From assembly GCF_050920415.1 (NCBI RefSeq), contig NZ_CP169309.1: 64,000 nt of DNA, one strand, 5' to 3'. Under the pieces are notes generated by a model. The model was not told the origin of the DNA and did not search any database. It was given only the letters and a program-made list of their open reading frames with translations. Positions 22,941-52,161 of the stretch are shown here, in pieces. Both the position numbers and the translations under genes were made by a program. Every line of letters starts with the position of its first letter. Position 1 is the stretch's first letter. The DNA comes from Escherichia coli (lineage in GTDB: Bacteria > Pseudomonadota > Gammaproteobacteria > Enterobacterales > Enterobacteriaceae).

Positions 22941-23891
22941 TTACGTTTTAATAATATGGGTGCCCGTCTCGCCACGCAGCGCCGCGGGCAGGCATTCCGG
23001 CGTGGTGATAATCACTTCTTTACCGCCCTGTTCCAGGAACGTCAGGCTGGCGATGATTTTTGGCAACATGCTGCCTGGCGGGAAATGCCCTTCCTGCATA
23101 TAGCGGGTCATGGTGGCAATATCCACCCGATCCAGCGCCTGCTGCTGCGGTTTGCCAAAATGAATACACACTTTTTCGACGCCGGTGGTGATCACCAGAA
23201 TGTCGGCGTGAATTTCGCGGGCCAGCAGCGCGGTGGAGAGATCTTTGTCGATAACCGCGTCCACGCTTTGGTAATCTCCCGCGTCAGTACGCACCACCGG
23301 AATTCCGCCACCGCCCGCACCAATCACCACAAACCCTTGTTGGATCAGCGCTTTAATGGCAGGTGCTTCAACAATACGTTTCGGTTCCGGCGAGGCGACC
23401 ACGCGGCGATAGCCGCGTCCGGCATCTTCAACAAAACGCCAGTCAGGGTTTGCCTTTTGAAATTCGTTACGCTGGCTTTCACTGAAGAATGCGCCAATGG
23501 GCTTGGTGGGGTGAGCAAATCCCGGATCGTTTTTATCCACTTCCACCTGAGTCACCACGGTGACGGCTTTTTTCTCGCCGTGGCGCGCCAGCCGATTGTT
23601 CAGCGCCTGTTGGATCAAGTAGCCAATGCCGCCTTGCGTATCCGCCACACAGTTCGCCAGCGGCGTTAAGGGCAGCCCTTCGCGCTCGTGGGCAATCTCC
23701 GCGCGGCGTAAATCCAGCCCGACCTGCGGCCCGTTGCCGTGGGTCAGCACAATGTCGTAATCGGAAGCCAGCATTTCCAGCACCGTATCGGCGACGGCCT
23801 TCACCGCCTCCGCCTGATGCTCAATCGACTGGCTGGCGTTATCTTTGATAATGCTGTTGCCACCAATGGCAACGACCACAAGTTCTTTCAT
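22941..23891 (-). CDS. yahI: Carbamate kinase-like protein YahI, 316 aa
   Basis: Amino-acid-kinase fold typical of ArcC carbamate kinases (VVAIGGNS…, GGGGIPV motifs). Confidence 0.85.
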   Translation of the reverse strand: MKELVVVAIGGNSIIKDNASQSIEHQAEAVKAVADTVLEMLASDYDIVLTHGNGPQVGLDLRRAEIAHEREGLPLTPLANCVADTQGGIGYLIQQALNNRLARHGEKKAVTVVTQVEVDKNDPGFAHPTKPIGAFFSESQRNEFQKANPDWRFVEDAGRGYRRVVASPEPKRIVEAPAIKALIQQGFVVIGAGGGGIPVVRTDAGDYQSVDAVIDKDLSTALLAREIHADILVITTGVEKVCIHFGKPQQQALDRVDIATMTRYMQEGHFPPGSMLPKIIASLTFLEQGGKEVIITTPECLPAALRGETGTHIIKT

Positions 23892-23941
23892 GTTGTTATG
23901 TCCGCTACAGAGGGTGATGGGGTTATGACCAACGCCAAATT

Positions 23942-24021
23942 GCCTGATGCGCTACGCTTATCAGGCCTACAGATTCTTGCGCCACTCGTAGGCCGGATAA
24001 GGCGTTCACGCCGCATCCGGC
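23942..24021. repeat. REP/BIME element in the yahI–yahG spacer
   Basis: GCCTGATGCGCTACGCTTATCAGGCCTAC plus an inverted GGCGTTCACGCCGCATCCGGCA unit; the small track ORF 23888..24124 overlaps it and is probably not coding. Confidence 0.8.
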
Positions 24022-24044
24022 AGAGACAACGCGCACTTTGCAGG

Positions 24045-25463
24045 TCAGACGCCGTAACGTTCGCACCAGCCAAGAATGGCTTTTTCGAAGCAGGCGAATG
24101 GTGGATGCACAATGCCCGCGCCAATCATGCCGACGCCCGCATCTTTATGGGCAATGGCGGTGTTGATCACCGGCAGAATGCCACTGCTACCCACGCGGGT
24201 GATGTCGATTGCCGTCGGCACACCCATAAAACCGAGCAGCGGAATGGTCACGTTGGGGTTTTCGCCGAGGGTGATTTCGCGCATCTGACGGGAGAAATCG
24301 ATAGCCTCTTCCACCGTACCGCCCACCAGCGCGACGATTGCAGGCGCGGTCGCCATAGCAAATCCACCAATGCCGTAGGTTTCGGTGATGGCGCTGTCGC
24401 CAATATCCAGCCCCGAATCTTCCGGCTTATAACCGGCAAACATCGGGCCGATGACCTGTTGCGCCGGGCCGGTAAACCACTGCCCCGGCAGGCCGCTGAC
24501 TCGCAGGCCGAACTCGACACCGTTACGCGCCATGGTGGTCACCACGGTGCTGTATTCAATGCCGTGCGCCGCATCCATCGCTGCTTTACACATTGCCATC
24601 CACGTCGGGCCGGAGAAGTAATCGCTGCTGGCGACAAACTCAAACACTTCGCGCTGTTGCTCGACGGAATAACCCGCCTGAATAATCCCCGGCGTCAGCG
24701 CCTGAATCAGCAGCGTCGTCCCGGCGTTATTGCGGTTATGGCATTCATCGCCCATATGCAGCGCCTGCGCCAGCATTAAGCGCAGATCAATCTCACCGAG
24801 AATCTTCATTGCGTCGCGCAGCATGGGCCCCTGCACATCGCGCATCCAGTTCAGGCGGTCAATCACGCTCTGATCGTTAGCGCCCATACGCAAAATCTTC
24901 GCCATCTGCTCGCTCATGTTGGTGTAAGCGATGTTGCCGTAGGTTTTGTTTTTCACGATGTGCATAAACATCGAGGCCGAGGTAACACCCGCCATCGAAC
25001 CCACGCAGTCGTGTTCGTGGCACGGCGAGAAAGTGATCTCCCCGGAGGCCGCCAGTTCAGCCGCCTCGTCAAGATCTTTCGCCAGTCCTTCGAACACCAG
25101 CGCCCCGGTGACCGCGCCTTTCATCGCGCCGCACATTTTTTCCCAGGTCACTGGTGGCCCGGCGTGAAGAATGGTTTTCGGCGTCATACCCGGCACCACG
25201 TTAATCGCCTGATCAAAACCAATCAGCACCGGATGCGACTGGATAATCCGCTCCAGCGCCTGCTGGTTAGCGGCGGCGATTTTGTCTGCCAGCGGCGAAT
25301 CGGCAATGTTATCCAGCGCCTGCACCACCTGCATATTGCCCTGCCCCGGCGGCGTCCAGTCGAGTTGGGTCACTTCTACATGCTGCTTTTTCAGATCATC
25401 GCTAAACATAGCGATGCCGACATTAATAACGTTCAACGGTTGGCTAAACAGTGACTGGCTCAT
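24045..25463 (-). CDS. yahG: DUF1116-family protein YahG, 472 aa
   Basis: Start set at MSQSLFSQPL…, giving a TGATG stop/start overlap with yahF. Confidence 0.8.
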   Translation of the reverse strand: MSQSLFSQPLNVINVGIAMFSDDLKKQHVEVTQLDWTPPGQGNMQVVQALDNIADSPLADKIAAANQQALERIIQSHPVLIGFDQAINVVPGMTPKTILHAGPPVTWEKMCGAMKGAVTGALVFEGLAKDLDEAAELAASGEITFSPCHEHDCVGSMAGVTSASMFMHIVKNKTYGNIAYTNMSEQMAKILRMGANDQSVIDRLNWMRDVQGPMLRDAMKILGEIDLRLMLAQALHMGDECHNRNNAGTTLLIQALTPGIIQAGYSVEQQREVFEFVASSDYFSGPTWMAMCKAAMDAAHGIEYSTVVTTMARNGVEFGLRVSGLPGQWFTGPAQQVIGPMFAGYKPEDSGLDIGDSAITETYGIGGFAMATAPAIVALVGGTVEEAIDFSRQMREITLGENPNVTIPLLGFMGVPTAIDITRVGSSGILPVINTAIAHKDAGVGMIGAGIVHPPFACFEKAILGWCERYGV

Positions 25464-27010
25464 CAGGCTTCCTCCCCTTTGCAAATAAATTCACGCGCCA
25501 GCAATCCGGTATTGGTGCTGCTGCTGGCCAGAATCACCCCGGCATCAAGCAGCATCTGGCTTTGTTGTGCTAACGATGGCGTATCGAGATCGGTACCCAG
25601 CACATAGGCGAGAATGATCAACTCGCGGCCTTCGGCGGCAGCGATCGCTTTCGCTTCTTTGATCGCCTCGATGGTGGAACCGACCGGATCTTCATGCGAT
25701 CCAAATCCGAGCACAAAATCCATCACGATCACCGCCACTTCTGGATCACGCGCTTCTTCGATCAAGCGACTGATGCGATTGGTGGGGTCAATCATTGGAT
25801 GCGGCTTGCCGTTGGTGAAGTCGTCATCACCAAAGTCGAGGAAGGTGTGTTTGATGCTGCGGTTGATATCTTGCAGGCGGAATTCAGGATCGGGCTGGAT
25901 GTTGCTGTAGACATCGCCGTGTTTTTCCATCACCGCGAACATGGTTTCGTCACACAGCGTGCCGCCGCAGAACAGGCCACGAATGTATTTCTGCCGCGGT
26001 TGCAGACGCGCCCGCACATCCGCAATCAACGGCTGGTTCAGCGTATGCAGCTCGAGATGTTCTTGTTTCACGCCGGAGAGCATCACCGCTTTCAATGCCG
26101 CCTCTTTGCTGCCGCGAGCAAACTGTAGCCCCTGCTCATCCACTGGCGTTTCGCCACGACCGAGGAAGCAGACCACCACCGGCTTGCGGCAGGCGCGTGC
26201 GCGTTCCAGCACTTTGCGGGCCACCGCAGGCGCAGGCGGTTTGGAGATAAGTACAATGATTTCAGTTTGCGGATCGTTTTCCAGCATCCCGATAGCGTCG
26301 AGCATCATCAGGCCGCCGATTTTCTCGCTCAGGTCGCGCCCGCCGGTGCCAATCAGTTGCGAAATGCCGCCACCAAATTCATGAATGCGGACGCTCAGCT
26401 CCTGGCTACCGGTGCCGGATGCGCCAACAATACCGATGTTGCCGCGACGCACAGCGTTACCAAAGCAGAGCGCCGCGCCGTTGATAATCGCCGTGCCGCA
26501 GTCTGGCCCCATCATCAGCAGCCCTTTTTCGTGGGCCAGTTGCTTGAGCGCCAGTTCATCTTCAACTGAGACATTATCGGAAAACAGCATCACGTTAAGA
26601 TCGTTTTGCAGCGCCTGACGCGCTTCGCGAGCGGCAAACAGACCGTTGACCGAAATCACTGCCAGGTTACTTTCCGGGATATGCTTTTTGGCGCTGGCAA
26701 TAGTGGCATAACGCGCCTCGTGCGAGCCGCTTTGCGCTTTGCTGTTGAACAGTTCTTCAATCTCCACCAGCAACTGCTCGTTGTCTGCGCCCGCTTTGCC
26801 GTTGATGACAATCATCAGGTCGCCGTTTTTCGCCTGCTCCAGCTCCGGCGTCAGCAGCCCTAAATTCTTCAGAACGCCTTTGTTCATTTCGGTCGCCATC
26901 GCCACAAATGCCTGCTCGACGCCGTCGAGTTTATTTGCACGCGTGGAGATAGACATCAGCGAGACAGAATCAAAATAGGTATTCGGTTTAATGACTATTT
27001 TAACTGACAT
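25463..27010 (-). CDS. yahF: FdrA-like protein YahF (succinyl-CoA-synthetase-alpha/CoA-binding-like fold), 515 aa
   Basis: Paralog of FdrA; glycine-rich nucleotide/CoA-binding motifs; overlaps yahE by 11 nt. Confidence 0.8.
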   Translation of the reverse strand: MSVKIVIKPNTYFDSVSLMSISTRANKLDGVEQAFVAMATEMNKGVLKNLGLLTPELEQAKNGDLMIVINGKAGADNEQLLVEIEELFNSKAQSGSHEARYATIASAKKHIPESNLAVISVNGLFAAREARQALQNDLNVMLFSDNVSVEDELALKQLAHEKGLLMMGPDCGTAIINGAALCFGNAVRRGNIGIVGASGTGSQELSVRIHEFGGGISQLIGTGGRDLSEKIGGLMMLDAIGMLENDPQTEIIVLISKPPAPAVARKVLERARACRKPVVVCFLGRGETPVDEQGLQFARGSKEAALKAVMLSGVKQEHLELHTLNQPLIADVRARLQPRQKYIRGLFCGGTLCDETMFAVMEKHGDVYSNIQPDPEFRLQDINRSIKHTFLDFGDDDFTNGKPHPMIDPTNRISRLIEEARDPEVAVIVMDFVLGFGSHEDPVGSTIEAIKEAKAIAAAEGRELIILAYVLGTDLDTPSLAQQSQMLLDAGVILASSSTNTGLLAREFICKGEEA

Positions 27011-27863
27011 AATTCCCTCCGTAGGTTTGGCTCAGCGCACAACCATCGGCCATGCCATACAGCATGTCGCAGCCGGAACTGGAGCCAATATGTTTAATTT
27101 TTTCTATTGCCTGAGTTGCGTTCCCAGGTATGTCATAAATAATGTTATGAATAAAACGATGAATATTTTCCCGGCAGCGTTGTTGTAATGCGGCTTCCAG
27201 CGTTATGGCACTTAATAACGTGGTATTATTTCTGCCGCGTTGCAGACCGAGATAAAATTCCTCTTTGTATTTTTCCGCCGGATGCCCGGGAATAAATGAA
27301 ATAAGCGCCAGACCTGTTAAATAATCATCGGCTGATGGTGTAAGGCCAATCCCTAACCCCATCATACTGACGACCGCTGAGGCGATATTTTGTTTATCGT
27401 TTACGGCCTGAATAACTGCCCGTCGTTTAATATGTAATTCTTTTTTTAATGCCTGATAGAACGGGTTATCGCCACAATAATTAAACAGGGTTTCATTTTC
27501 CCCCAGGTGTTGATGAATAATGTCGTGCCACTGTTGCCAGGCGATAAGGTGAAAATTTTCAGCGGTCATTTGCAAAGCTGGGGACAGCCAACGCTGGCAA
27601 TGACTCATCTCTATATGAAGATGTTGACCAACCGTAATACCTTGATCATCAAACTGAACCTTATCACCATGACGGAACAGACCATCAAAGTGAGTGAGTG
27701 CCAACCGACAACTGTTTGGCGCATTGTCGTACTCTTCACAAAGCAGTGTCAGCAACTGCTGGCGGGCCGGAAGTGCGATATTTACCGCTCTGGCAAAGAC
27801 CTGTTCAACCTGTCCTTGCCCCCGCTGCGCCAGAAAATCAGCATCCGCAGTTAGCGCCCACAC
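27000..27863 (-). CDS. yahE: DUF2877-family protein YahE, 287 aa
   Basis: Conserved position upstream of yahF, overlapping reading frames. Confidence 0.75.
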   Translation of the reverse strand: MWALTADADFLAQRGQGQVEQVFARAVNIALPARQQLLTLLCEEYDNAPNSCRLALTHFDGLFRHGDKVQFDDQGITVGQHLHIEMSHCQRWLSPALQMTAENFHLIAWQQWHDIIHQHLGENETLFNYCGDNPFYQALKKELHIKRRAVIQAVNDKQNIASAVVSMMGLGIGLTPSADDYLTGLALISFIPGHPAEKYKEEFYLGLQRGRNNTTLLSAITLEAALQQRCRENIHRFIHNIIYDIPGNATQAIEKIKHIGSSSGCDMLYGMADGCALSQTYGGNYVS

Positions 27864-27902
27864 ACACCGTCTTTCTGGTGTGTTGATAGCAAGCCTCCCG
27901 GT

Positions 27903-28508
27903 TTATGCACCTGCGGCAATCAGTAACTGCGCAATCTCTTCAAAGCCTCGTTCCCGCGCCAGTTCCAGCGGCGTTTTGCCATATTTATCCGTCATGTGCG
28001 GGCTGGCACCGTGTTCCAGCAATAACTGGACAATCGCCTGCTGTTTTATCCCGCCATCATTAAGCACAATTGCTTCCAGTAGCGGCGTCCAGCCAACATG
28101 GTTGGTCTGGTTAACGTTAATCTCCGTATGCGCCAAAAGCTCTTTTACAATACTTAAATGGCCTTTTTCACAGGCAGGCGTCAGGCCGACACCGCCAAAA
28201 CGGGTGACGCAATTAAGATCGGGTTTAGCCGGTAAAATAATCCGTAACAGGGTTAAATCGCCGGTCAGGCAGCTAATTAAAAAAGGATTTGAACATATCT
28301 GATCTTGCTTATTAATATCCGCTCCGGCATCAATTAATGCCTGAACGCAAGCATATTGCTGATATAAACTTGCCAGCGTAATTGCCGTTTTCCCCTGACG
28401 ATCGCAGGTATTAATATCGACCCCCAGCGCAAGGCAGGTTTTTACTTTATCGATATCACCCTGTTGCGCAGCCAATAAATAGTCGGCAGGTAGATTTTTT
28501 ATAGTCAT
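27903..28508 (-). CDS. yahD: Ankyrin-repeat protein YahD, 201 aa
   Basis: Several ankyrin repeats (…GKTAITLASLYQQYACVQALIDAGADIN…, …GWTPLLEAIVLNDGG…LLLEHGASP…). Confidence 0.85.
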   Translation of the reverse strand: MTIKNLPADYLLAAQQGDIDKVKTCLALGVDINTCDRQGKTAITLASLYQQYACVQALIDAGADINKQDQICSNPFLISCLTGDLTLLRIILPAKPDLNCVTRFGGVGLTPACEKGHLSIVKELLAHTEINVNQTNHVGWTPLLEAIVLNDGGIKQQAIVQLLLEHGASPHMTDKYGKTPLELARERGFEEIAQLLIAAGA

Positions 28509-28765
28509 TCACATTCCCCTGGTTTTTGTGGCTGTTTTCGATGAATTGAGAATAGCAACGATAATCTGATAAAAGAACCCGCTTAAATTTAATTCGCCGT
28601 ATTTCGCCTTTTTGTTGAATGATGTTCAACAATCTTTTCGCAGTGTGCGGTAGTGCAATATTTATTTCTTTGACCCGATACCCTTTCACTCAATCAGGTT
28701 TTATTTCTCTATAGTCTGCACATGTAAGAGTAGCTTTCGTCCATGTCTAACCAGAGGGGAACAAG

Positions 28766-29263
28766 ATGAACGGACTCACGGCAACGGGTATAACCGTCGG
28801 TATTTGTGCAGGGCTTTGGCAGTTAGTGTCTTCACATGTCGGGCTCTCTCAGGGATGGGAATTATTAGGAACCATTGGCTTCGTCGCCTTTTGCAGTTTT
28901 TATGCCGCAGGCGGCGGTAAATCGGGGTTTATCAGAAGCCTGGCGGTTAATTATTCCGGGATGGTGTGGGCGTTTTTCGCCGCGCTGGCTGCCGGTTGGC
29001 TGGCCTCGGTGAGTGGGATTTCCGGCTTCTGGGCGAGCGTGATTATGACTGTACCCTTCTCGGCGGTGGTGGTCTGGCAAGGACGTTTCGGTTTACTGTC
29101 TTTTATTCCCGGAGGCTTTCTCGGCATGACGCTATTTTTTGCCAGCGGGATGAACTGGACGGTGACATTACTGGGTTTTCTGGCGGGTAACTGCGTGGGG
29201 ATAATTTCAGAATATGGCGGACAAAAATTAAGCGAAGCGACGACTAAACGCGACGGGTATTAA
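28766..29263 (+). CDS. yahC: Inner-membrane protein YahC, 165 aa
   Basis: Hydrophobic four-helix-type small membrane protein, divergent from yahD. Confidence 0.8.
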   Translation: MNGLTATGITVGICAGLWQLVSSHVGLSQGWELLGTIGFVAFCSFYAAGGGKSGFIRSLAVNYSGMVWAFFAALAAGWLASVSGISGFWASVIMTVPFSAVVVWQGRFGLLSFIPGGFLGMTLFFASGMNWTVTLLGFLAGNCVGIISEYGGQKLSEATTKRDGY

Positions 29264-29354
29264 AAGTTATTCAAAAATGATTATCTATCTTTAACCGATA
29301 CCTCTACAGTCATAGCTGGAGAAATTCATAGTAGATAATGGCGGGAATGGTTTA

Positions 29355-30287
29355 ATGAACTCAATTTTTACCGAAGAGAATCTGTTGGCATTTACTACCG
29401 CTGCGCGTTTTGGCAGCTTCAGTAAAGCTGCAGAAGAGTTGGGTTTAACCACTTCCGCCATTAGCTACACCATCAAGCGAATGGAAACAGGGCTGGATGT
29501 GGTGCTGTTCACTCGCAGTACCCGCAGCATTGAGTTAACGGAGTCCGGGCGTTATTTTTTCCGCAAAGCTACCGACCTGCTGAATGATTTTCACGCCATC
29601 AAACGCAGCATCGATACTATTTCGCAGGGCATAGAAGCGCGTGTGCGTATTTGTATTAATCAGCTGCTTTATACGCCCAAACACACCGCACGCTTATTAC
29701 AGGTACTGAAAAAGCAATTTCCAACCTGCCAGATTACCGTCACCACCGAAGTGTATAATGGCGTCTGGGATGCGATTATTAATAATCAGGCGAATATCGC
29801 TATCGGCGCACCCGACACGCTGCTGGACGGCGGCGGCATTGATTACACGGAGATTGGCGCGATTCGCTGGGCTTTTGCTATCGCCCCGGATCACCCGTTA
29901 GCCTTTGTGCCGGAACCCATCGCCGAAAGCCAACTACGTCTCTATCCTAATATCATGGTGGAAGACACCGCGCATACGATTAATAAAAAAGTGGGCTGGT
30001 TGCTGCATGGGCAGGAGTCGATTCTGGTGCCAGATTTCAACACCAAATGTCAGTGCCAGATTTTAGGCGAAGGAATTGGTTTTTTGCCGGATTACATGGT
30101 CCGTGAGGCGATGGCGCAATCCCTGCTGGTTACCCGACAAATCCATAATCCGCGCCAGGATTCACGCATGTTACTGGCGACCCAGCACTCTGCCACCGGT
30201 CAGGTGACGCAGTGGATTAAAAAACAATTTTCGCCAAATGGCATATTAACAGGGATCTATCAGGATTTACTGCATCGGGAGAATTAA
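29355..30287 (+). CDS. yahB: LysR-family transcriptional regulator YahB, 310 aa
   Basis: N-terminal LysR HTH (…FTTAARFGSFSKAAEELGLTTSAISYTIKRME…). Confidence 0.85.
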   Translation: MNSIFTEENLLAFTTAARFGSFSKAAEELGLTTSAISYTIKRMETGLDVVLFTRSTRSIELTESGRYFFRKATDLLNDFHAIKRSIDTISQGIEARVRICINQLLYTPKHTARLLQVLKKQFPTCQITVTTEVYNGVWDAIINNQANIAIGAPDTLLDGGGIDYTEIGAIRWAFAIAPDHPLAFVPEPIAESQLRLYPNIMVEDTAHTINKKVGWLLHGQESILVPDFNTKCQCQILGEGIGFLPDYMVREAMAQSLLVTRQIHNPRQDSRMLLATQHSATGQVTQWIKKQFSPNGILTGIYQDLLHREN

Positions 30288-30328
30288 TCGCTGCCAACCT
30301 CCCGATGCGCTGTGAATAGCGGTTTACC

Positions 30329-31312
30329 TCAACCACCTGCTTTCATTACCCATTCAGAGATAAATTTATTACCCGGTACTGGCGGAGAGTACAAATAGCC
30401 CTGCAAAAAGTGAACGCCTTTGCCGATCATTAAATCCGCCTGCTCCTGGGTTTCTACCCCTTCCGCCACGATACTCAGACCAGGCTTACGCGCCAGTTCG
30501 ACAATATTGTCCACAATATGACCGGAAATTTCGTCGACACTCGCCATTTGCACAAACGACTTGTCAATTTTAATAAAATCGACCGGAAACGCCTGCAAAT
30601 AACGATAGGTCGCATAACCCGTACCAAAGTCATCCAGCGCAAAGGTAATGTTGTGCTGATGAAGGCTGTCAAATATCGCTCTGGCTTCTGGCGTTACCGG
30701 AATGGGGTTGCGTTCCGTTAGCTCAAGAACCAGCTTGATTTTATCGTTACCTAATTTCTTGACCAGGTTCAGACACTCTTTTTCAAATCCTGCGGCCAAA
30801 AAACATCCTGCCGAGACGTTGATGCCAATATGGAAATTATCCGGCAGCAAATGTTTTACTGGCATCAGAATATCCGCAGTCTGTTTCATCAGCTGGCGAG
30901 TCATTATGACAATAAGACCGGATGACTCCGCCAGAGGAATAAACTGATCCGGTGGGATAATTCCCGTTTGCGGATGTTCCCAGCGAACAAGCACTTCACA
31001 GCCCGTCAGTACCCCTGTCTGCGCGCAGAAAACGGGCTGGATCCACGGTTTGAATTCGTGATTTTCCAACGCCAGACTGATGGCTTCAGGCGTGACGATA
31101 TGGTGACAACGGTTATCAGGAATATAAAAATTATTTTTATTTCCCTTGCCACTGATGACTTGCGGATGATATTGAAAAAAGATATCCCGCCAGAAAGTAA
31201 TATCACTCTGGATGCCTAATTTTTCATACAACTGCTTCTTCTGATGTGAAATTGTCTTTGCGCTACGATTTCTGTATTGTGATATTTCTGTAACCGACAT
31301 TCCCTCCATTAG
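30329..31312 (-). pseudogene. pdeL: pdeL (yahA) 3' portion encoding the EAL c-di-GMP phosphodiesterase domain, separated from its 5' end by IS2
   Basis: The track ORF 30329..31447 begins inside IS2: its first 45 codons are IS2 sequence, then it continues in frame as the PdeL HTH tail (…MSVTEISQYRNRSAKTISHQKKQLYEKLGIQ…) and EAL domain. Confidence 0.8.
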
Positions 31313-31403
31313 TAGACTGGCCCCCTGAATCTCCAGACAACCAGTATCACTTAAATAAGTGATAGTCTTAATACTAGTTTTTAGACTAGTCATTGGAGAA
31401 CAG

Positions 31404-31769
31404 ATGATTGATGTCTTAGGGCCGGAGAAACGCAGACGGCGTACCACACAGGAAAAGATCGCAATTGTTCAGCAGAGCTTTGAACCGGGGATGACGGTCT
31501 CCCTCGTTGCCCGGCAACATGGTGTAGCAGCCAGCCAGTTATTTCTCTGGCGTAAGCAATACCAGGAAGGAAGTCTTACTGCTGTCGCCGCCGGAGAACA
31601 GGTTGTTCCTGCCTCTGAACTTGCTGCCGCCATGAAGCAGATTAAAGAACTCCAGCGCCTGCTCGGCAAGAAAACGATGGAAAATGAACTCCTCAAAGAA
31701 GCCGTTGAATATGGACGGGCAAAAAAGTGGATAGCGCACGCGCCCTTATTGCCCGGGGATGGGGAGTAA
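31404..31769 (+). CDS. insC: IS2 OrfA (InsC), 121 aa, HTH protein
   Basis: [40 protein letters not shown]… matches remembered IS2 InsC; overlaps insD in the -1 frame (programmed frameshift arrangement). Confidence 0.85.
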
Positions 31770-32632
31770 GCTTAGTCAGCCGTTGTCTCCGGGTGTCGCG
31801 TGCGCAGTTGCACGTCATTCTCAGACGAACCGATGACTGGATGGATGGCCGCCGCAGTCGTCACACTGATGATACGGATGTGCTTCTCCGTATACACCAT
31901 GTTATCGGAGAGCTGCCCACGTATGGTTATCGTCGGGTATGGGCGCTGCTTCGCAGACAGGCAGAACTTGATGGTATGCCTGCGATCAATGCCAAACGTG
32001 TTTACCGGATCATGCGCCAGAATGCGCTGTTGCTTGAGCGAAAACCTGCTGTACCGCCATCGAAACGGGCACATACAGGCAGAGTGGCCGTGAAAGAAAG
32101 CAATCAGCGATGGTGCTCTGACGGGTTCGAGTTCTGCTGTGATAACGGAGAGAGACTGCGTGTCACGTTCGCGCTGGACTGCTGTGATCGTGAGGCACTG
32201 CACTGGGCGGTGACTACTGGCGGCTTCAACAGTGAAACAGTACAGGACGTCATGCTGGGAGCGGTGGAACGCCGCTTCGGCAACGATCTTCCGTCGTCTC
32301 CAGTGGAGTGGCTGACGGATAATGGTTCATGCTACCGGGCTAATGAAACACGCCAGTTCGCCCGGATGTTGGGACTTGAACCGAAGAACACGGCGGTGCG
32401 GAGTCCGGAGAGTAACGGAATAGCAGAGAGCTTCGTGAAAACGATAAAGCGTGACTACATCAGTATCATGCCCAAACCAGACGGGTTAACGGCAGCAAAG
32501 AACCTTGCAGAGGCGTTCGAGCATTATAACGAATGGCATCCGCATAGTGCGCTGGGTTATCGCTCGCCACGGGAATATCTGCGGCAGCGGGCTTGTAATG
32601 GGTTAAGTGATAACAGATGTCTGGAAATATAG
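31727..32632 (+). CDS. insD: IS2 OrfB (InsD) transposase with DDE/integrase core, 301 aa
   Basis: IS3-family transposase catalytic domain; length matches InsD. Confidence 0.85.
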
Positions 32633-32643
32633 GGGCAAATCCA

Positions 32644-32762
32644 ATTAGCAGCTTGAGTAAAAGCCGTTCTTTTTCGGACACGATACCAGGCAAGGTCAAA
32701 TTAACCGTTGCCCCGAACTCTTCCAAAAAAACACTCAAATCATGCGAAGCCATTGAACACAC
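32644..32762 (-). pseudogene. pdeL: pdeL (yahA) 5' fragment (first ~39 codons, start of the LuxR-type HTH)
   Basis: Minus-strand ORF starting at 32762 reads MCSMASHDLSVFLEEFGATVNLTLPGIVSEKERLLLKLL and then runs into the IS2 right end. Confidence 0.7.
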
Positions 32763-32894
32763 CTTGATGAAATCTTGTGCGCCAGCTAAATCTGCTTGTC
32801 TTCACTCTAACTGATAAAGCTGACTGCAAGAAAATGACACAGAGAGCCGAATTATCTCCCGTTCGGCTCTCTCTCCTTTTACTCATTATTCAGA

Positions 32895-35800
32895 TCAGAA
32901 TTGCCACTTAATGCCCACCATTGCAGAGGTGTCATTATATCCTCTATCGGCAACCTGAACGCCCACATTCCCCCAGACATTCAGGTTGGCATTTAGCTGT
33001 CCTTCCACCCCGGTTTTTATCTCAGCAATATTGCGGGCTCCATCCTGAGTGACGGACACGCCATCCATACTGGTGCTGAAATCCTTACTGTTATGCAGCC
33101 AGTTCACTTCTACAAACGGCTGGAACTCGCGGGATTTACTGTCATCCATTTTATGGTGGCTCTTCAGCCAGGTTTTTACGCCAAGTCGGGTTTGAACATT
33201 GCCATCACCGTTGCTATGAACGAGGGTTCCGTTGCTTTCGCGGTGATTATCGGCTTTGACTCCCATCCAGGTAACCTGTGCTTGCGGCTGAACATACCAT
33301 TCATTACGCGTTCCCTGGCTGCCATTAAATTCAGCTAATTTGTGTTTGTATCCAGCTTCCAGTGACGCGGTAAATCCTTTTGATTTATAGGATTCACTTT
33401 GTAAGTCATCCCCTTTCACTGTGTTATCAAACCAACTGTACTGCGCCCAACTGTCGAGATACGCGCCATTACGCGACTCGTCATCGGCATACCAGGTGGC
33501 ATAGAGGCCTGTGCTATATCCGTTCACACTCGCTTTTGCACGATAACCAGTGCGCGAGGAGGTCGTTTTGCTGTCGCTGTTGCCATATCCCGCCATGACC
33601 CCAATATGCCAGCGATCGCTGTCGTTTTGGCTCCACTGCGCGATATCGCCTCCCAGTTGCAGAACATAGCGATTGCTTTGGGTTTTCAGCTGGCCGCTGC
33701 CATCACGCCATTTATTATGACCCCCTTCATGGCGCATCCACATACTGGTTTGTTTCTGCTCACCCGTCACCATGTCGGTATAGTATGTATTTCCCAGACG
33801 CTCATGCAGACGCGTGTTGAACATGGTATTCGCTGCTGCAAGGTTCGCAATGTAGCTACCCGCCTCCGGTCGCAGGTCATTATCCACATTCAGATCCGGA
33901 CCCGGCGTAGGTGTCGGGTTAGGGTTCGGCTCTGGATTCGGGTTTGGCTCCGGATTCGGCATCGGGTCTGGCTCCGGCTGCAGTTCAGGAGAATCACTGC
34001 CGCTGGTCAGATACCAGTTACCACTATTTGCCCCTTGTCCACGCGCGAGAGTGTAGTCATATGCCCCCGCAACGATACGCCCAGCCTGAACAAATTCGCC
34101 CTCAGACTTACCGTCAACATGGATAAGTTCGATACCGTTAAGGGTTTTCGCACCTGTACCGCCAGCGTTATTCACCGTAACGGCAGTCGTGCCGCTAGTA
34201 TCGCCCTCGACAACCAATTTATCAGTTACTGAATCATCGCCATTCAGTACCGTATTCATTACCAGTTGGCCGTTATTACCGTAGTAGTTCCCCTTCACCA
34301 CCAACACGTTGCCAGCTTGCAGTCCTGACATCCCGGTCATCAGCGTACCGTTGTTGGTCAGATTGCCACCCAGGGTGTAATTCACTGGTGCAGCCGCTCT
34401 TTTTTCAGCGCTATTATTCAGCGCCAGGGTGCCGTTGTTCTCAATGTTTGCGTTACCCATTCCCTGCGCATGACTAACCAGGACATTAGCCGAGCTAGCA
34501 ATGTTCACATTCGCCGTCAGGTTGCTATTATCGCCCGCGATATCCAGCGTGCCGCCCTGAATATTCAGCTCTCCGCTTCCCGTTAACGAACCGGTTGAAG
34601 TGCCCCCGTTGGTAACCGTCAGACTCCCGCCGTTCAAGCTCAGCAGTGAATCGGCGCTGCCATTGAGCGTGCCCACGATCTGGCTGTGACCATTCATATC
34701 CAGTTCAGTCTCTGCCGCCAGACGCAGTTCATGGGTATTACCCAACACGTTATCGTTATTCAACAAAAGCGTCCCGCTGCGCAGATCGGTAATACCGGTA
34801 TAGTCGTTGTCTTTGTTAGAAAGCGATACGGTCTGACCTTTCTGGCTGCTGAAAGCCAGGTCACCACTGCCGGTAATCTTTGCACTAAGATCGGCGGCAT
34901 TCTCGCTCTTACCGTTGGCACTCAGCACCAGGGCATCACTGTCGGTAGCCTGCAATTCAAGCTGGGTCAGGCCGTAACCGATATACAGACCGTCATTGTT
35001 TACCCCACTCGTCAGACGATAGTCGTAAGTGCCGACGGCCGCTTTTTGCCCATTCTGCTGAATATCACGTTGGGCGCTGCTGGAGAGGATTTGCCCATTT
35101 TTATCCTGCAATTGCAGATTGCCCGCATCGCCCAGAACTTCCGCACCTTGCGCATCAACCAACTTAATGGTGCTGTTACCATCATCGACTTCAGTGAGCG
35201 ATAACGCAGAGTCAATATCACGAGATACTGAGCGGACAACGTCACTGTCAGAAACCTCAATCACACCCTCGCCGCGCAAATCCAGCGTTTTACTAACGTT
35301 GACTGTCCCTTCTGTCATCTGCGCGCCAGCGGTCAGGGCACCAAAATCAACGGTTCCGCCCGAGAATCCCAGAGTGCTAATGGAGTGAGCGCCCTTACCC
35401 ACTGTTATCTGGCTTCCCTGACCCGCAGTGATCCCGCCTTTCTGCAGAAACTCAGCATTTTTTTCCAGGTTAAATGTCGTGTTCTGGAATGCCAGTGCCC
35501 CCTGAAACCAGTCTGTATAAGCAAACTCATCGAAGGAGAATTCGTGATTCCCCATGTTTATTTCAACAACGCCTTTACCTTCAAGATCGTTATCAAACAC
35601 CCAATCTTTATTGGCATTAATTTGCAGTTTGCCATCAACATCCAGTTCTGCACGGCCGATGTTCTTATCTTCAGAAATAACAGCGACAGCATCGGAAGCG
35701 ACATCAATATATCCGCTGAATGCATAGTTATTGCCGATCAACTCCACCGTCCCACTGTCGATACTTATTGTACCGTTGCCGGAAATCTTATTGGCAAAGG

Positions 35801-36878
35801 TCATGCTATCGTCAGCCTTCAGGTGTAATTTCCCGCGGTTGGTGATTTCTGCTGTACCTATATTTTGGGTGATCCCTAAAGCCCCGTTTTTCTCAATTTT
35901 GACTTTGCCGCTAAAGGCGGAGTTATCACCGGTTAAGTAAGTTGTACCATTGAGCGCATTGATATAGCCCAGGCCCTCGCTGCCACTGACAATATCCGCG
36001 GAAATAGTCGCGTTTTTATCCGTGTGGTTTAAAGTGATTTTCTTATCTGATGTCGAAGCCCACACAAACTCAATTTTTTCGGCATCAATAATCCCTGCCG
36101 CCTTCGCTGCATTTCCTTCCTGTGCACCTAACGCCAACTCAGAGTTGGTGCTTAAACTAATAGTCGGCGCAGATACTTTTCCGCCTTCTGAAACGGCAAG
36201 TGTTGTATCGGAGTTTTGATTATAATAGCCCAGGCTAATTTGCTTACTGGCATTAACTTCACCGCCGTTATTAACTGACAGGTACTGATTACCACCGTAA
36301 CTGCTGTAAACGCCCATAAAGAAGGTTTCGGAATTTACCTGGCTACCTTCCCCACTGACATTTCCCTGCGTATAAGTCAGACGACTGGTGCCCTTAACAT
36401 GGATTTTGCCGCCGTTGGAGACATTAAAATAGCCGCGATCGTGTCTCATGCCTGAGTTTGATTCATACAAATCATCAGCATATAACTCGCTGCCAGCATT
36501 GGAGACATTCAGGAACCCCGTACCTTTCAGCAAAAAGTTAAGTGGGCCATTGATTGTTACCTTTCCTCCGGTAATATCCAACCCACCACCAGAAGCGAGA
36601 GTCAGACGCGGACGGGAAGTATCTGTCGCATTGATTACCAGATTGGCATTGTCAGTCACCGTAATATGGTAATCGATGCTCTGGTTCTCTTTGCCAAAAT
36701 CAATAGTTTTATCCTGGTTTACGATGACATCATCGGCGAATACCAGAGATGAATATAAACTTATCGCGCTAATTAAAACAGCCCGGGACTTTTTTCCTTT
36801 TACTCTGCTCCCCAGCTCAGAGCAAACGCTCCAACAGTTACGGGACCTGTTCCACTTTAGCCGATATATTTTATTCAT
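32895..36878 (-). CDS. ehaA: AIDA-I-type autotransporter adhesin, EhaA-like, about 1327 aa
   Basis: Extended autotransporter signal peptide (MNKIYRLKWNRSRNCWSV…), long Gly/Asn/Thr-rich passenger, Pro-rich linker PEPDPMPNPEPNPNPEPNPNPTPTP, C-terminal beta-barrel ending …GIKWQF; start set at MNKIYRLKW. Name assigned from memory of O157:H7 EhaA length and locus. Confidence 0.75.
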   Translation of the reverse strand: MNKIYRLKWNRSRNCWSVCSELGSRVKGKKSRAVLISAISLYSSLVFADDVIVNQDKTIDFGKENQSIDYHITVTDNANLVINATDTSRPRLTLASGGGLDITGGKVTINGPLNFLLKGTGFLNVSNAGSELYADDLYESNSGMRHDRGYFNVSNGGKIHVKGTSRLTYTQGNVSGEGSQVNSETFFMGVYSSYGGNQYLSVNNGGEVNASKQISLGYYNQNSDTTLAVSEGGKVSAPTISLSTNSELALGAQEGNAAKAAGIIDAEKIEFVWASTSDKKITLNHTDKNATISADIVSGSEGLGYINALNGTTYLTGDNSAFSGKVKIEKNGALGITQNIGTAEITNRGKLHLKADDSMTFANKISGNGTISIDSGTVELIGNNYAFSGYIDVASDAVAVISEDKNIGRAELDVDGKLQINANKDWVFDNDLEGKGVVEINMGNHEFSFDEFAYTDWFQGALAFQNTTFNLEKNAEFLQKGGITAGQGSQITVGKGAHSISTLGFSGGTVDFGALTAGAQMTEGTVNVSKTLDLRGEGVIEVSDSDVVRSVSRDIDSALSLTEVDDGNSTIKLVDAQGAEVLGDAGNLQLQDKNGQILSSSAQRDIQQNGQKAAVGTYDYRLTSGVNNDGLYIGYGLTQLELQATDSDALVLSANGKSENAADLSAKITGSGDLAFSSQKGQTVSLSNKDNDYTGITDLRSGTLLLNNDNVLGNTHELRLAAETELDMNGHSQIVGTLNGSADSLLSLNGGSLTVTNGGTSTGSLTGSGELNIQGGTLDIAGDNSNLTANVNIASSANVLVSHAQGMGNANIENNGTLALNNSAEKRAAAPVNYTLGGNLTNNGTLMTGMSGLQAGNVLVVKGNYYGNNGQLVMNTVLNGDDSVTDKLVVEGDTSGTTAVTVNNAGGTGAKTLNGIELIHVDGKSEGEFVQAGRIVAGAYDYTLARGQGANSGNWYLTSGSDSPELQPEPDPMPNPEPNPNPEPNPNPTPTPGPDLNVDNDLRPEAGSYIANLAAANTMFNTRLHERLGNTYYTDMVTGEQKQTSMWMRHEGGHNKWRDGSGQLKTQSNRYVLQLGGDIAQWSQNDSDRWHIGVMAGYGNSDSKTTSSRTGYRAKASVNGYSTGLYATWYADDESRNGAYLDSWAQYSWFDNTVKGDDLQSESYKSKGFTASLEAGYKHKLAEFNGSQGTRNEWYVQPQAQVTWMGVKADNHRESNGTLVHSNGDGNVQTRLGVKTWLKSHHKMDDSKSREFQPFVEVNWLHNSKDFSTSMDGVSVTQDGARNIAEIKTGVEGQLNANLNVWGNVGVQVADRGYNDTSAMVGIKWQF

Positions 36879-37408
36879 CACAATCTCCAGCAATACATCC
36901 AAATAAAACTAAGATTGCATAAACAGCAACGCATTAAATGCCATTCCGGTTACTGTTCATCGCATATAAAAATTCAAAAATTTTGCATAGCATTGACAAC
37001 CACATATCTGAGTATGTAGTTCAGAGGGTAATAAAATAGCAAGTTACTACTGAAAACTTATTTTAAGTTAACACTATTAACTTTATCATTACATTCCTCC
37101 CAGTCTCGAATACCTGCGCATTATATGTATCCAGGAACTCAAATCAACTCAAAATATAAACAAAAGCAGGAGGAATACACTTAATATACAGCCGATAAAA
37201 GTGGTAACTCTTATTAGGTATCAAAATATAAGAATCGTCTTATTAATAAATATATAACTCTATAGGACTGAATCCATTCAGCTAATACAAAATAAAATCG
37301 TTAATTAATAAAATATAAAATCATGAAGTGATACAAGAGGAATTGCAGGATATGACATGACAATCATATATAATATATGCATAATTTTTTACAGCGAGTC
37401 AATGATTT

Positions 37409-48384: not shown

Positions 48385-48609
48385 ACCAGACTCCTGAGTG
48401 GTTTTTGATTACAAACACCAACAATCTTAGACAATAATTAATCTAATACCATCAAATGGTTAATCATGATTTTTGTTTTGTGATTCTGATTAAGAAAAAG
48501 AAAATACCAGACGATAAGACAAAATATCAAGCGTTGTGAAGAAATGTTATTTGCTATTTTGCGTCTATAGTCATGATGTCAAATGAACGCGTTTCGACAG
48601 GAAATCATC

Positions 48610-49935
48610 ATGAATAAATATCAGGCAGTTATTATTGGTTTTGGCAAGGCTGGAAAAACATTAGCCGTCACGCTGGCAAAAGCAGGTTGGCGTGTGGCTC
48701 TCATCGAACAATCAAATGCAATGTATGGCGGGACCTGTATTAATATCGGCTGTATCCCAACCAAAACATTGGTTCATGACGCACAGCAGCACACAGATTT
48801 TGTCCGTGCCATACAGCGTAAAAATGAAGTGGTTAATTTTTTACGTAATAAGAATTATCATAATCTTGCGGATATGCCCAATATCGACGTGATCGACGGC
48901 CAGGCGGAGTTTATCAATAATCATAGCCTGCGTGTTCATCGGCCTGGGGGAAATCTGGAGATTCATGGCGAGAAAATTTTTATTAATACCGGTGCACAAG
49001 CCGTGGTTCCGCCAATTCCTGGAATTACCACCACGCCTGGTGTATATGACAGCACCGGATTACTTAATCTAAAAGAATTGCCTGGGCATTTAGGTATTTT
49101 GGGCGGCGGATATATTGGCGTTGAGTTCGCCTCTATGTTCGCTAATTTTGGCAGCAAAGTAACCATTTTAGAGGCAGCTTCGCTGTTTTTGCCTCGGGAA
49201 GATCGGGATATTGCTGATAATATCGCGACGATTTTACGCGATCAGGGCGTCGATATGATCCTCAATGCCCATGTGGAGCGAATCAGTCACCATCAAAATC
49301 AAGTGCAAGTGCATAGCGAGCACGCCCAACTGGCGGTGGATGCACTGTTAATAGCTTCCGGTCGTCAACCGGCTACCGCTTCGTTACATCCAGAAAATGC
49401 CGGTATCGCAGTAAACGAGCGCGGGGCAATTGTCGTTGACAAGCGATTACATACCACCGCAGACAATATTTGGGCGATGGGAGATGTTACCGGCGGGCTG
49501 CAATTTACTTACATATCACTGGATGATTACCGCATTGTGCGTGATGAGTTGCTGGGAGAAGGCAGACGTAGTACTGATGATCGGAAAAATGTGCCTTATT
49601 CCGTATTCATGACACCGCCCCTGTCCAAGGTTGGTATGACAGAAGAGCAAGCCAGAGAGAATGGTGCTGATATTCAGGTGGTGACATTGCCTGTAGCTGC
49701 AATTCCGCGCGCCAGAGTGATGAACGATACCCGTGGGGTATTAAAAGCAATTGTTGATAATAAAACCCAACGTATATTAGGGGCATCACTGCTGTGTGTT
49801 GACTCCCACGAGATGATCAATATAGTGAAAATGGTGATGGATGCCGGGCTGCCTTATAGCATATTACGCGATCAGATATTTACTCATCCGTCGATGAGCG
49901 AATCACTCAATGATCTATTTTCATTAGTCAAATAA
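48610..49935 (+). CDS. rclA: Pyridine-nucleotide-disulfide oxidoreductase RclA (YkgC), 441 aa
   Basis: FAD-binding GFGKAG motif and redox-active CINIGC disulfide motif; start set at MNKYQAVIIGFG…. Confidence 0.85.
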   Translation: MNKYQAVIIGFGKAGKTLAVTLAKAGWRVALIEQSNAMYGGTCINIGCIPTKTLVHDAQQHTDFVRAIQRKNEVVNFLRNKNYHNLADMPNIDVIDGQAEFINNHSLRVHRPGGNLEIHGEKIFINTGAQAVVPPIPGITTTPGVYDSTGLLNLKELPGHLGILGGGYIGVEFASMFANFGSKVTILEAASLFLPREDRDIADNIATILRDQGVDMILNAHVERISHHQNQVQVHSEHAQLAVDALLIASGRQPATASLHPENAGIAVNERGAIVVDKRLHTTADNIWAMGDVTGGLQFTYISLDDYRIVRDELLGEGRRSTDDRKNVPYSVFMTPPLSKVGMTEEQARENGADIQVVTLPVAAIPRARVMNDTRGVLKAIVDNKTQRILGASLLCVDSHEMINIVKMVMDAGLPYSILRDQIFTHPSMSESLNDLFSLVK

Positions 49936-51929: not shown

Positions 51930-52161
51930 TAGGTATGAACAATGAGTCTACGTTAAAACGTAACCTCAAATTAGTATGTGGATTTTGATATCACTTATGC
52001 AAAAAATTCATTAATAATGTAGGACTGAAACCTCTCTATTTTTGGGGCAATGAAGCAGACGCTATCAGTGCTTTTGCCTTGGGACTTGCTGTTTTTGATA
52101 CACTTAGGGCCCAGGACATAACGAAAATGTGCGATATGACAAAGAATTAACGGTGAATGTG

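Follow-up and report, generated by a model that had tools for sequence, protein, structure and literature searches.

Does the IS2 copy within the 5' end of pdeL create a new phosphodiesterase, or does it inactivate the gene? The locus lies in a stretch of 64,000 nucleotides of Escherichia coli DNA (contig NZ_CP169309.1), referred to here as the window, in which pdeL is encoded on the minus strand. An earlier note on this DNA read the locus as an in-frame fusion of IS2 codons to an EAL domain deprived of its helix-turn-helix (HTH) region and expressed constitutively. Our analysis points instead to a recent, strain-private transposition of IS2 at codon 36/37 of pdeL, which has most likely inactivated the gene.

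The IS2 element and its insertion site

The element is a complete IS2 of the IS3 family (31313-32643, plus strand, 1331 bp), which is 100.0% identical over its full length to the RefSeq-annotated IS2 copies of E. coli MFDS1022581. IS2 copies spanning at least 80% of the element are present in 4058 genomes. The left inverted repeat (IRL, 31313-31354, plus strand), matching the IRL sequence exactly, begins at 31313 with TAGACTGGCCCCCTGAATCTCC..., lies beside orfA and adjoins the EAL-encoding part of pdeL. The right inverted repeat (IRR, 32602-32643, plus strand), an exact match to the IRR sequence, finishes at 32643 with ...GGGGCAAATCCA and adjoins a 36-codon stub of pdeL. Alignment of IRL with IRR showed imperfect repeats of ~41/42 bp with one indel, and each end sequence is present in a single copy in the window, against a chance expectation of 0. 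The orfA gene (31404-31769, plus strand, 121 aa) starts 91 bp inside the IRL end and encodes the IS2 repressor TnpA/InsC, matching NCBIfam NF006928 with 276.4 bits (cut-off 229) over profile positions 1-121 of 121. The orfB gene (31727-32632, plus strand, 301 aa) encodes the DDE transposase part, TnpB/InsD, and matches NF006918 with 727.6 bits (cut-off 597) over positions 1-301 of 301. An A6G slippery site (AAAAAAG, 31721-31727, plus strand) is read in the sequence ...GGGCAAAAAAGTGG... and is presumably the -1 frameshift site joining OrfA and OrfB, as in IS2 and its family. All the hallmarks of IS2 are present, namely a length of ~1.33 kb, imperfect inverted repeats, orfA and orfB with the A6G motif, a 5-bp target duplication and near-identity to known copies. 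An Rfam scan of the whole window yielded no family at the gathering score.

The element is flanked by a perfect 5-bp duplication, ATTAG, with the left copy at 31308-31312 and the right copy at 32644-32648. The IS2 ends, the duplication and the split gene reported in the earlier note are all where it had placed them. In silico deletion of IS2 together with one ATTAG restores a PdeL of 362 residues that is identical to the RefSeq protein WP_000146382.1 of strains EC42405 and MFDS1022581; the comparison with an uninterrupted pdeL that had been proposed as a check thus gives full agreement. The gene order at the restored locus is yahD-yahC-yahB-pdeL-ehaA-betT, and synteny and orthology both identify the gene as pdeL. 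Strain MFDS1022581 carries the exact empty site, in which the two flanks are found as exact string matches that abut with a single ATTAG, and the window and this strain are 100.0% identical for ~25 kb on each side.

The chance that the assembly misplaced an IS2 copy into pdeL, by repeat collapse or a mis-join, is very small. IS2 is multi-copy in this lineage and repeats commonly cause misassembly, but a misjoin would not generate a perfect 5-bp duplication of a target that is single in the sister strain, between flanks that are fully identical over the distances given above. An assembly artefact was rejected on the basis of the perfect duplication and the exact empty site.

Not one of the 5426 complete E. 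coli genomes carries the pdeL::IS2 junction, and it had no exact match in the genome_contigs or metagenome_contigs collections. Because the sister strain has the empty site and the junction is absent from the genomes and both contig collections, the event is recent and private to this strain. The view that this is a simple, recent insertion into the 5' end of pdeL is therefore upheld by the 5-bp duplication and the empty site. MFDS1022581 itself has IS2 at 20 chromosomal and 11 plasmid places, and an IS2 there sits in a neighbouring gene whose counterpart in the window is uninterrupted. These places and the insertion in the neighbouring gene show that IS2 is active in this lineage. A literature search returned nothing specific on IS insertions in pdeL or natural pdeL pseudogenes.

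Domains on either side of the break

IS2 breaks pdeL between codons 36 and 37. The 5' fragment (32644-32753, minus strand) starts at ATG 32753, which is the RefSeq-annotated start of the uninterrupted allele (CDS of 1089 nt), and comprises codons 1-36 plus 2 nt, which specify the N-terminal tail together with LuxR/GerE helix 1. The 3' fragment (30329-31312, minus strand) runs from L36/M37 to G362 and the stop codon, and encodes the whole EAL domain as well as helices 2-4 of the HTH. The break had been put about 39 codons in; it is indeed close to the 5' end, but the distance from the annotated ATG is 36 codons, and 39 is obtained by counting from GTG 32762.

In the reconstructed PdeL, the Pfam GerE match covers residues 26-72 and the EAL match residues 112-346. 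Thus, of the four LuxR/GerE helices it is the first that IS2 interrupts, and HTH and EAL are not separated from each other. What the downstream fragment has lost is only the N-terminal 25 residues and the scaffold helix 1. In the open reading frame downstream of the break, GerE is still recognised over model positions 12-50 (E = 6e-4), as is the RcsB DNA-binding region, and Pfam assigns a partial GerE domain to residues 44-82 and EAL to residues 122-356 of the 372-aa frame described below. K60 and the catalytic residues E141 and K283 are all present in the downstream fragment; a K60A substitution abolishes DNA binding by PdeL (bioRxiv 10.1101/2021.10.01.462762). The claim that the HTH is split off is contradicted by these positions, as the K60-bearing HTH remains joined to EAL. 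Loss of scaffold helix 1 would nevertheless probably unfold the four-helix DNA-binding domain, judging from the alignment to RcsB domains. Helix boundaries were taken from how the sequence aligns with Pfam GerE and with solved RcsB DNA-binding domains, together with published work on K60A. An AlphaFold2 single-sequence model of the restored PdeL (mean pLDDT 46, N terminus below 50) was too unreliable as three-dimensional evidence and was set aside.

The EAL region differs from PDB entries 7PK5 and 4KIE by one residue. With a complete EAL domain, the downstream fragment could in principle be an active enzyme, a property that counts against a knockout. The GerE-EAL reading frame of pdeL is no longer contiguous in the window, and the locus represents a disrupted pdeL rather than an intact member of the family.

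Reading frames and transcription at the junctions

At the IRR junction, a minus-strand frame of 95 aa starts at the pdeL ATG (32466-32753) and joins 36 PdeL codons to 59 antisense IS2 codons before a stop; its product matched no NCBIfam family. At the IRL junction, the downstream pdeL frame does run open into IS2, as had been noted. The resulting 372-aa frame (30329-31447, minus strand) consists of 45 antisense IS2 codons followed by PdeL residues 36-362. The count of 45 IS2 codons was correct, but they begin at GTG 31447 and not at an ATG; the first ATG inside IS2 (31393) gives 27. Further starts in the same frame are the native M37 (31309) and M40 (31300). Neither GTG 31447 nor ATG 31393 shows any Shine-Dalgarno (SD):anti-SD pairing (0 kcal/mol). 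The M40 ATG has GGAGG just 1-2 nt upstream. The M37 ATG is preceded at 10-11 nt by a G-run (CAGGGGGC) contributed by IRL, for which an anti-SD pairing of -9.4 kcal/mol is calculated in silico. If a transcript arrives, this IRL-derived G-run makes re-initiation at M37 possible, which counts against a complete knockout.

Of the three frames that lead out of IRL, one stays open for 52 codons, and about one third of insertions in the same orientation would thus yield such a "fusion". The long frame has a start codon lacking a ribosome-binding site and a continuity no better than chance (~1/3), and the IS2-pdeL open frame is a by-product of insertion phase.

Transcription out of IRL was assessed with promoter scans based on consensus heuristics, which weak or activator-dependent outward transcription could escape. 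The consensus scan of the minus strand over positions 31000-33000 gave no promoter. A position weight matrix (PWM) scan was calibrated on a window-wide background, in which the best score per 400 nt has a median of 7.4 bits and a 90th percentile of 10.5. The best minus-strand match inside IS2 scored 8.1 bits, which is not above background, and the best outward hexamer pair at the IRL end scored 6.2-6.4 bits, below the background median. The outward -35 of IS2 sits in IRR, not in IRL (PMC9330008, PMC12095673). PMC12095673 also cites promoter activity that emerges de novo within mutated insertion sequences, with reference to a study of IS2 transcription. In the window, IRR faces away from the EAL part of pdeL, and the gene body adjoins IRL. 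Thus, neither an outward -35 nor a full promoter was found at the IS end that abuts the gene.

These results bear directly on the proposal that a constitutive, HTH-less 372-aa IS2-EAL fusion, with its promoter and start codon both provided by IS2, lowers c-di-GMP and alters motility or biofilm formation. The frame exists and is in phase, and activation of adjacent genes by insertion sequences, IS2 among them, is documented in certain contexts (PMC12095673, PMC9330008). However, the fragment is not HTH-less, the 45-codon leader starts from a GTG lacking an SD sequence as does the in-element ATG, the activating -35 lies at the opposite end from the EAL part, outward promoters were not detected in either scan, and the open frame is what one insertion phase in three would produce. 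The proposal is accordingly very improbable, and the claim of constitutive expression in particular does not stand, with no promoter above background leading out of IRL, the documented -35 in IRR and no SD pairing at the IS2 starts.

Transcripts could also reach the fragment from the native side. The native spacer between ehaA and pdeL is 141 bp long and contains a terminator hairpin, and the promoter scans revealed no promoter-like site above background in it. A read-through transcript would contain an untranslated antisense stretch of 1156 nt with 340 C versus 277 G, in which 24% of 78-nt windows have a C/G ratio of at least 1.5; the corresponding figure for the entire minus strand of the window is 8%. 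In K-12, pdeL transcription is at baseline in the absence of DNA-binding-competent PdeL and is silenced by H-NS. Homology of the K-12 pdeL promoter region to this lineage is absent upstream of -14. The published autoregulation model was built on this promoter region of K-12; with the region missing here, the model may not hold, and regulatory details are not confidently transferable.

A low level of truncated PdeL is an unlikely outcome, though a less improbable one than the fusion. Weak read-through or divergent transcription would permit initiation at M37 (326 aa) or M40, with the IS2 ATG or GTG less likely. The product would lack residues 1-36, keep HTH helices 2-4 and EAL, and behave as a weakly dimerising phosphodiesterase that is impaired in DNA binding and free of PdeL autoregulation. 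The intact EAL domain, the partial GerE domain and the SD-like motif before M37 are consistent with such a product, and the isolated EAL domain folds, has been crystallised and is described as dimerising with a Kd of ~1 μM. Full-length PdeL, in comparison, is a dimer at 25 nM through cooperation of HTH and EAL, so that a scarce truncated protein would be mostly monomeric. Other observations against it are the lack of a promoter-like site above background leading outward from IRL, the long untranslated C-rich leader that favours Rho-dependent termination, the spacing of the GGAGG at M40, the absence of SD sequences at the IS2 starts and the probable unfolding of the DNA-binding domain upon loss of helix 1. 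The specific sequence of events in which the SD-like motif of IRL and low transcription across the junction yield PdeL without residues 1-36, with the recognition helix and EAL kept and autoregulation lost, is quite improbable. If it did occur, the bistable c-di-GMP "digitizer" would become a low, constant phosphodiesterase, and c-di-GMP, motility or phage N4 sensitivity would be expected to change measurably, in a way that differs from a clean knockout.

Insertional inactivation, the reading we favour, runs as follows. The strain has lost the ability to make full-length PdeL, a LuxR-HTH/EAL "trigger" phosphodiesterase and transcription factor. Transcripts from the weak native upstream region of pdeL run into IS2 at IRR, antisense to the element, translation ends 59 codons into it, and the remaining 1156 untranslated, C-rich nucleotides are likely to cause Rho-dependent polarity. 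As the IS2-pdeL open frame has neither a promoter nor a ribosome-binding site, little or no truncated protein is expected. The sequence shows the insertion, its limits, the empty site of the sister strain and the protein segments on either side; we infer that the downstream part is unexpressed and that the phenotype is null or near-null. Since pdeL is monocistronic and convergent with yahB, no downstream gene is affected by IS2.

Significance and comparison with known systems

The wider significance is small, as this is another case of IS2, actively moving in this lineage, knocking out a regulatory gene that is not essential. Deletion of pdeL is reported to cause no significant phenotype in the laboratory (bioRxiv 10.1101/2022.01.19.477023). 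For that reason, and in view of the missing K-12 promoter region, the role of PdeL outside K-12 is worth asking about. As a naturally occurring pdeL mutant, the strain forms a near-isogenic pair with its pdeL+ sister MFDS1022581, and the pair could be used to probe that role. For annotation, the locus is best described as an IS-interrupted pdeL pseudogene and not as an "IS2-EAL fusion protein".

The reconstructed protein resembles K-12 PdeL (YahA; PDB 7PK5, 4KIE/4LJ3/4LYK) in its length of 362 aa and its GerE and EAL domains, and the two are near-identical from residue 105 on. However, the ehaA-linked allele has 91.4% DNA identity to K-12 pdeL, its product diverges over the first ~25 residues, no upstream sequence is shared from position -15, and the gene is split by IS2. 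A similar case of an insertion sequence in a c-di-GMP turnover gene that separates close strains is dgcJ::IS1 in MG1655 CGSC 7740 (PMC8669472). The dgcJ insertion carries a demonstrated phenotype, resistance to phage N4 (PMC8669472), whereas a pdeL deletion is reported to lack a significant one in the laboratory (bioRxiv 10.1101/2022.01.19.477023).

In the IS2 hybrid promoters (activation of ampC, acrEF and neoR; Pjunc), an IS2 end likewise lies directly beside a coding sequence that might rely on the element for its expression. However, the junction and hybrid promoters of the IS3 family use the outward -35 in IRR (PMC9330008, PMC12095673), whereas here the gene body is at IRL, IS2 sits within the coding sequence and not ahead of it, and suitably spaced hexamers above background are absent. 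The closest likeness is to the IS2 gene disruptions of E. coli, including the classic polar insertions, which share the same 1331-bp element with IRL and IRR, orfA and orfB with the A6G motif, the 5-bp duplication and the same expected outcome, an interrupted coding sequence. The present case differs in that the target, pdeL, is new and that the insertion has no downstream gene to affect.

The IS2 insertion and its empty site

A complete IS2 of 1331 bp is located at 31313-32643 on the plus strand, within the minus-strand gene pdeL (yahA), which encodes a LuxR-type HTH-EAL phosphodiesterase. The left inverted repeat (IRL, TAGACTGGCCCCCTGAATCTCCAGACAACC...) begins at 31313 and the right (IRR, ...GGGGCAAATCCA) has its last base at 32643. 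The two align as imperfect ~41/42-bp repeats with one indel, and the 64-kb window has a single copy of each end sequence (chance expectation 0). The element contains orfA (31404-31769, 121 aa; end-to-end match to NCBIfam 'IS2 repressor TnpA', 276 bits, cut-off 229), orfB (31727-32632, 301 aa; match to NCBIfam 'IS2 transposase TnpB', 728 bits, cut-off 597) and the A6G frameshift site (31721-31727). Across its entire length it shows 100.0% identity to IS2 copies annotated in RefSeq, and every membership test identified it as IS2. Copies of the ATTAG target lie on both sides (31308-31312 and 32644-32648). Both ends, the perfect 5-bp duplication and the split gene are thus present as the earlier note described.

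In-silico removal of IS2 and one ATTAG restored an unbroken 362-aa PdeL ORF starting MASHDLSVFLEEF.... The 400-bp reconstructed empty site has a 100% match in two complete genomes, EC42405 and MFDS1022581, both of which carry pdeL annotated as an intact gene of 1089 nt, with the gene order yahD-yahC-yahB-pdeL-ehaA-betT; alignment to an uninterrupted pdeL, the check proposed in the earlier note, shows these alleles to match the reconstruction. Window positions 6400-31312 correspond to 3893928-3918840 of the MFDS1022581 chromosome, and the match to 32649-57600 begins at 3918841, each with an identity of 100.0%. The immediate flanks in MFDS1022581 are exact string matches that abut with a single ATTAG. 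This filled-site/empty-site pair confirms the observation and indicates a simple, recent insertion, as had been proposed. The ATTAG duplication, like the empty site, contradicts an origin of the junction as an assembly artefact, which is hardly conceivable.

The gene is a pdeL orthologue, but a disrupted one. The pdeL::IS2 junction was found in none of 5426 complete E. coli genomes, and a 32-nt junction probe had no exact match in genome or metagenome contig collections. Among the complete genomes, pdeL was found in 5160 and was at least 80% covered in one piece in 5080, so disruption is the exception. The allele, absent from the collections searched, is a fresh instance of a very well-known type of event. 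pdeL and yahB converge, so the insertion has no polar effect on genes nearby.

The window has the gene order usual for E. coli (prp/yah region, bet, ykgEFG, rcl, fdeC) and no Rfam family at gathering score across 1-64000. The sister strain MFDS1022581 differs by a ~12.3-kb island in rclA (17462-31124 of the compared sister locus) with genes for an integrase, a primase, an Icd-like protein, a major capsid protein and a head-tail connector. The island resembles a phage satellite; rclA in the window (48583-49935, plus strand) has an uninterrupted ORF there. The sister strain also has an IS2 within an HTH/GyrI-like (ykgA-type) gene (33351-35543 of the compared locus) that is intact in the window (52129-53019, plus strand). 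IS2 therefore moved independently in both strains after their divergence. MFDS1022581 has IS2 at 20 chromosomal and 11 plasmid places.

The break point and the downstream reading frame

The minus-strand junction reads ...AAG CTG CTA AT-IS2-CTA ATG GAG GGA ATG..., so that the 5-bp target comprises codon L36 and the first two bases of M37. By Pfam, the restored protein has a GerE/LuxR-type domain (residues 26-72) followed by an EAL domain (112-346). The N-terminal domain aligns with the solved RcsB DNA-binding domain: PdeL SEKERLLLKLLMEG stands opposite RcsB SPKESEVLRLFAEG, the scaffold helix, first of the domain's four, and MSVTEISQYRN and RSAKTISHQKKQLYEKLG stand opposite the two HTH helices. 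The helix assignment follows what is established for the NarL/RcsB fold; an AlphaFold model of low confidence, given little weight, agrees in helix pattern (27-37, 42-50, 53-66 and 72-83). The insertion thus cuts away the N-terminal tail together with helix 1 (residues 1-36), and the HTH proper stays joined to the EAL domain. For the 372-aa downstream ORF, hits remain to the GerE model (positions 12-50, E = 6e-4) and to the RcsB model, and the ORF retains K60, whose substitution K60A abolishes PdeL DNA binding (bioRxiv 10.1101/2021.10.01.462762). The earlier description of the HTH as split off, leaving an HTH-less product, is thus wrong. However, without its scaffold helix the PdeL DNA-binding domain is probably non-functional.

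This ORF (30329-31447, minus strand), in which antisense IS2 codons continue into PdeL, is real as a string. Of the fusion to 45 IS2 codons from an ATG, the open frame and the codon count hold, but the start is a GTG; the first ATG, at 31393, leaves 27 IS2 codons. Neither GTG 31447 nor ATG 31393 has Shine-Dalgarno complementarity. Outward through IRL, one of the three frames stays open over 52 codons, compared with 11-12 in the other two, so the same leader arises whenever an insertion has this orientation and phase (prior ~1/3). With the ribosome-binding site absent and frame continuity at chance level, the fusion ORF does not qualify as a translated fusion and is not a designed feature.

The minus-strand reading of IRL contains a G-run (CAGGGGGC, 31313-31325), a fortuitous Shine-Dalgarno-like motif that precedes the native Met37 ATG (31307-31309) by 10-11 nt (in-silico duplex -9.4 kcal/mol). 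No other translation signal could serve the downstream fragment, and M37 is the most plausible start if any mRNA existed; at M40, GGAGG is just 1-2 nt upstream, too close. A truncated PdeL without residues 1-36, made at a low level from M37 or M40, is supported by this G-run and by the intact EAL domain. However, full-length PdeL is dimeric at 25 nM, but dimerisation of the EAL domain alone is weaker (Kd ~1 uM), and such a product is unlikely. The locus would best be explained as an ordinary knockout of pdeL by IS2 insertion, the open frame being a by-product; this is the probable reading.

Transcription into the EAL part and the effect of pdeL loss

A consensus scan found no minus-strand promoter in 31000-33000. 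In the PWM scan of this strand, the best site scored 8.1 bits inside IS2 and sites near IRL 6.2-6.4 bits, compared with a window background of 7.4 bits (median best per 400 nt) and 10.5 bits (90th percentile). In IS3-family elements including IS2, the outward-facing -35 sits in IRR, forming the minicircle junction promoter with the IRL -10, or hybrid promoters where a -10 box lies in the flanking DNA, reported for IS2 at ampC, acrEF and neoR (PMC9330008; PMC12095673). Here, in contrast, the EAL part adjoins IRL; the locus thus does not qualify as a case of IS-mediated activation, with the wrong IS2 end and no promoter. De-novo promoter activity in ISs upon mutation has been described, citing an IS2 transcription study, and a tested IS2 right-end fragment had no detectable promoter activity (PMC12095673). 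Constitutive expression of an IS2-EAL fusion, as first proposed, has the open frame; with no outward promoter above background in either scan and no Shine-Dalgarno at its starts, it is very improbable.

Read-through that starts on the native side of pdeL also holds little promise. The stub ORF ends at 32466, and the following 1156 untranslated nt have 340 C vs. 277 G, with C/G reaching 1.5 or more in 24% of the 78-nt windows vs. 8% for the whole minus strand of the window; by this heuristic, the C-rich composition would favour Rho-dependent termination.

Published work suggests that loss of PdeL would remove PdeL-dependent control of targets including fliFGHIJK, sslE and wecA, the c-di-GMP 'digitizer' and protection against phage N4; no significant laboratory phenotype was reported for a pdeL deletion (bioRxiv 10.1101/2022.01.19.477023). 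The earlier note's interpretation is thus supported in part. With MFDS1022581 as its pdeL+ partner, the strain makes up a natural pdeL-/pdeL+ pair, the most useful by-product of the analysis.

The ehaA-linked pdeL allele and K-12

The native upstream region of pdeL is a mere 141-bp spacer (32754-32894) after ehaA (32895-36902, minus strand), in which the ehaA terminator hairpin lies; promoter-like sites there do not exceed background, which also speaks against read-through. The hairpin (32841-32872; 12-bp stem, AGAGAGCCGAA...TTCGGCTCTCT) lies directly 3' of the ehaA stop codon, is flanked on each side by T-rich runs, and is probably a bidirectional terminator between ehaA and pdeL.

In K-12, pdeL transcription drops to baseline without DNA-binding-competent PdeL, and H-NS silences the gene. 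However, K-12 has an 874-bp betT-pdeL promoter region with a Cra box and PdeL boxes that the window lineage lacks: homology reaches no further than 14 bp upstream of the ATG, and short K-12 fragments match upstream of ehaA instead (~37116-37286). The K-12 argument against read-through thus transfers only loosely. The ehaA-linked allele, in which the first ~25 residues also differ, is present in ~1400 of the 5426 complete genomes. The PdeL autoregulation circuit described in K-12 may therefore fail to apply to a quarter of E. coli.
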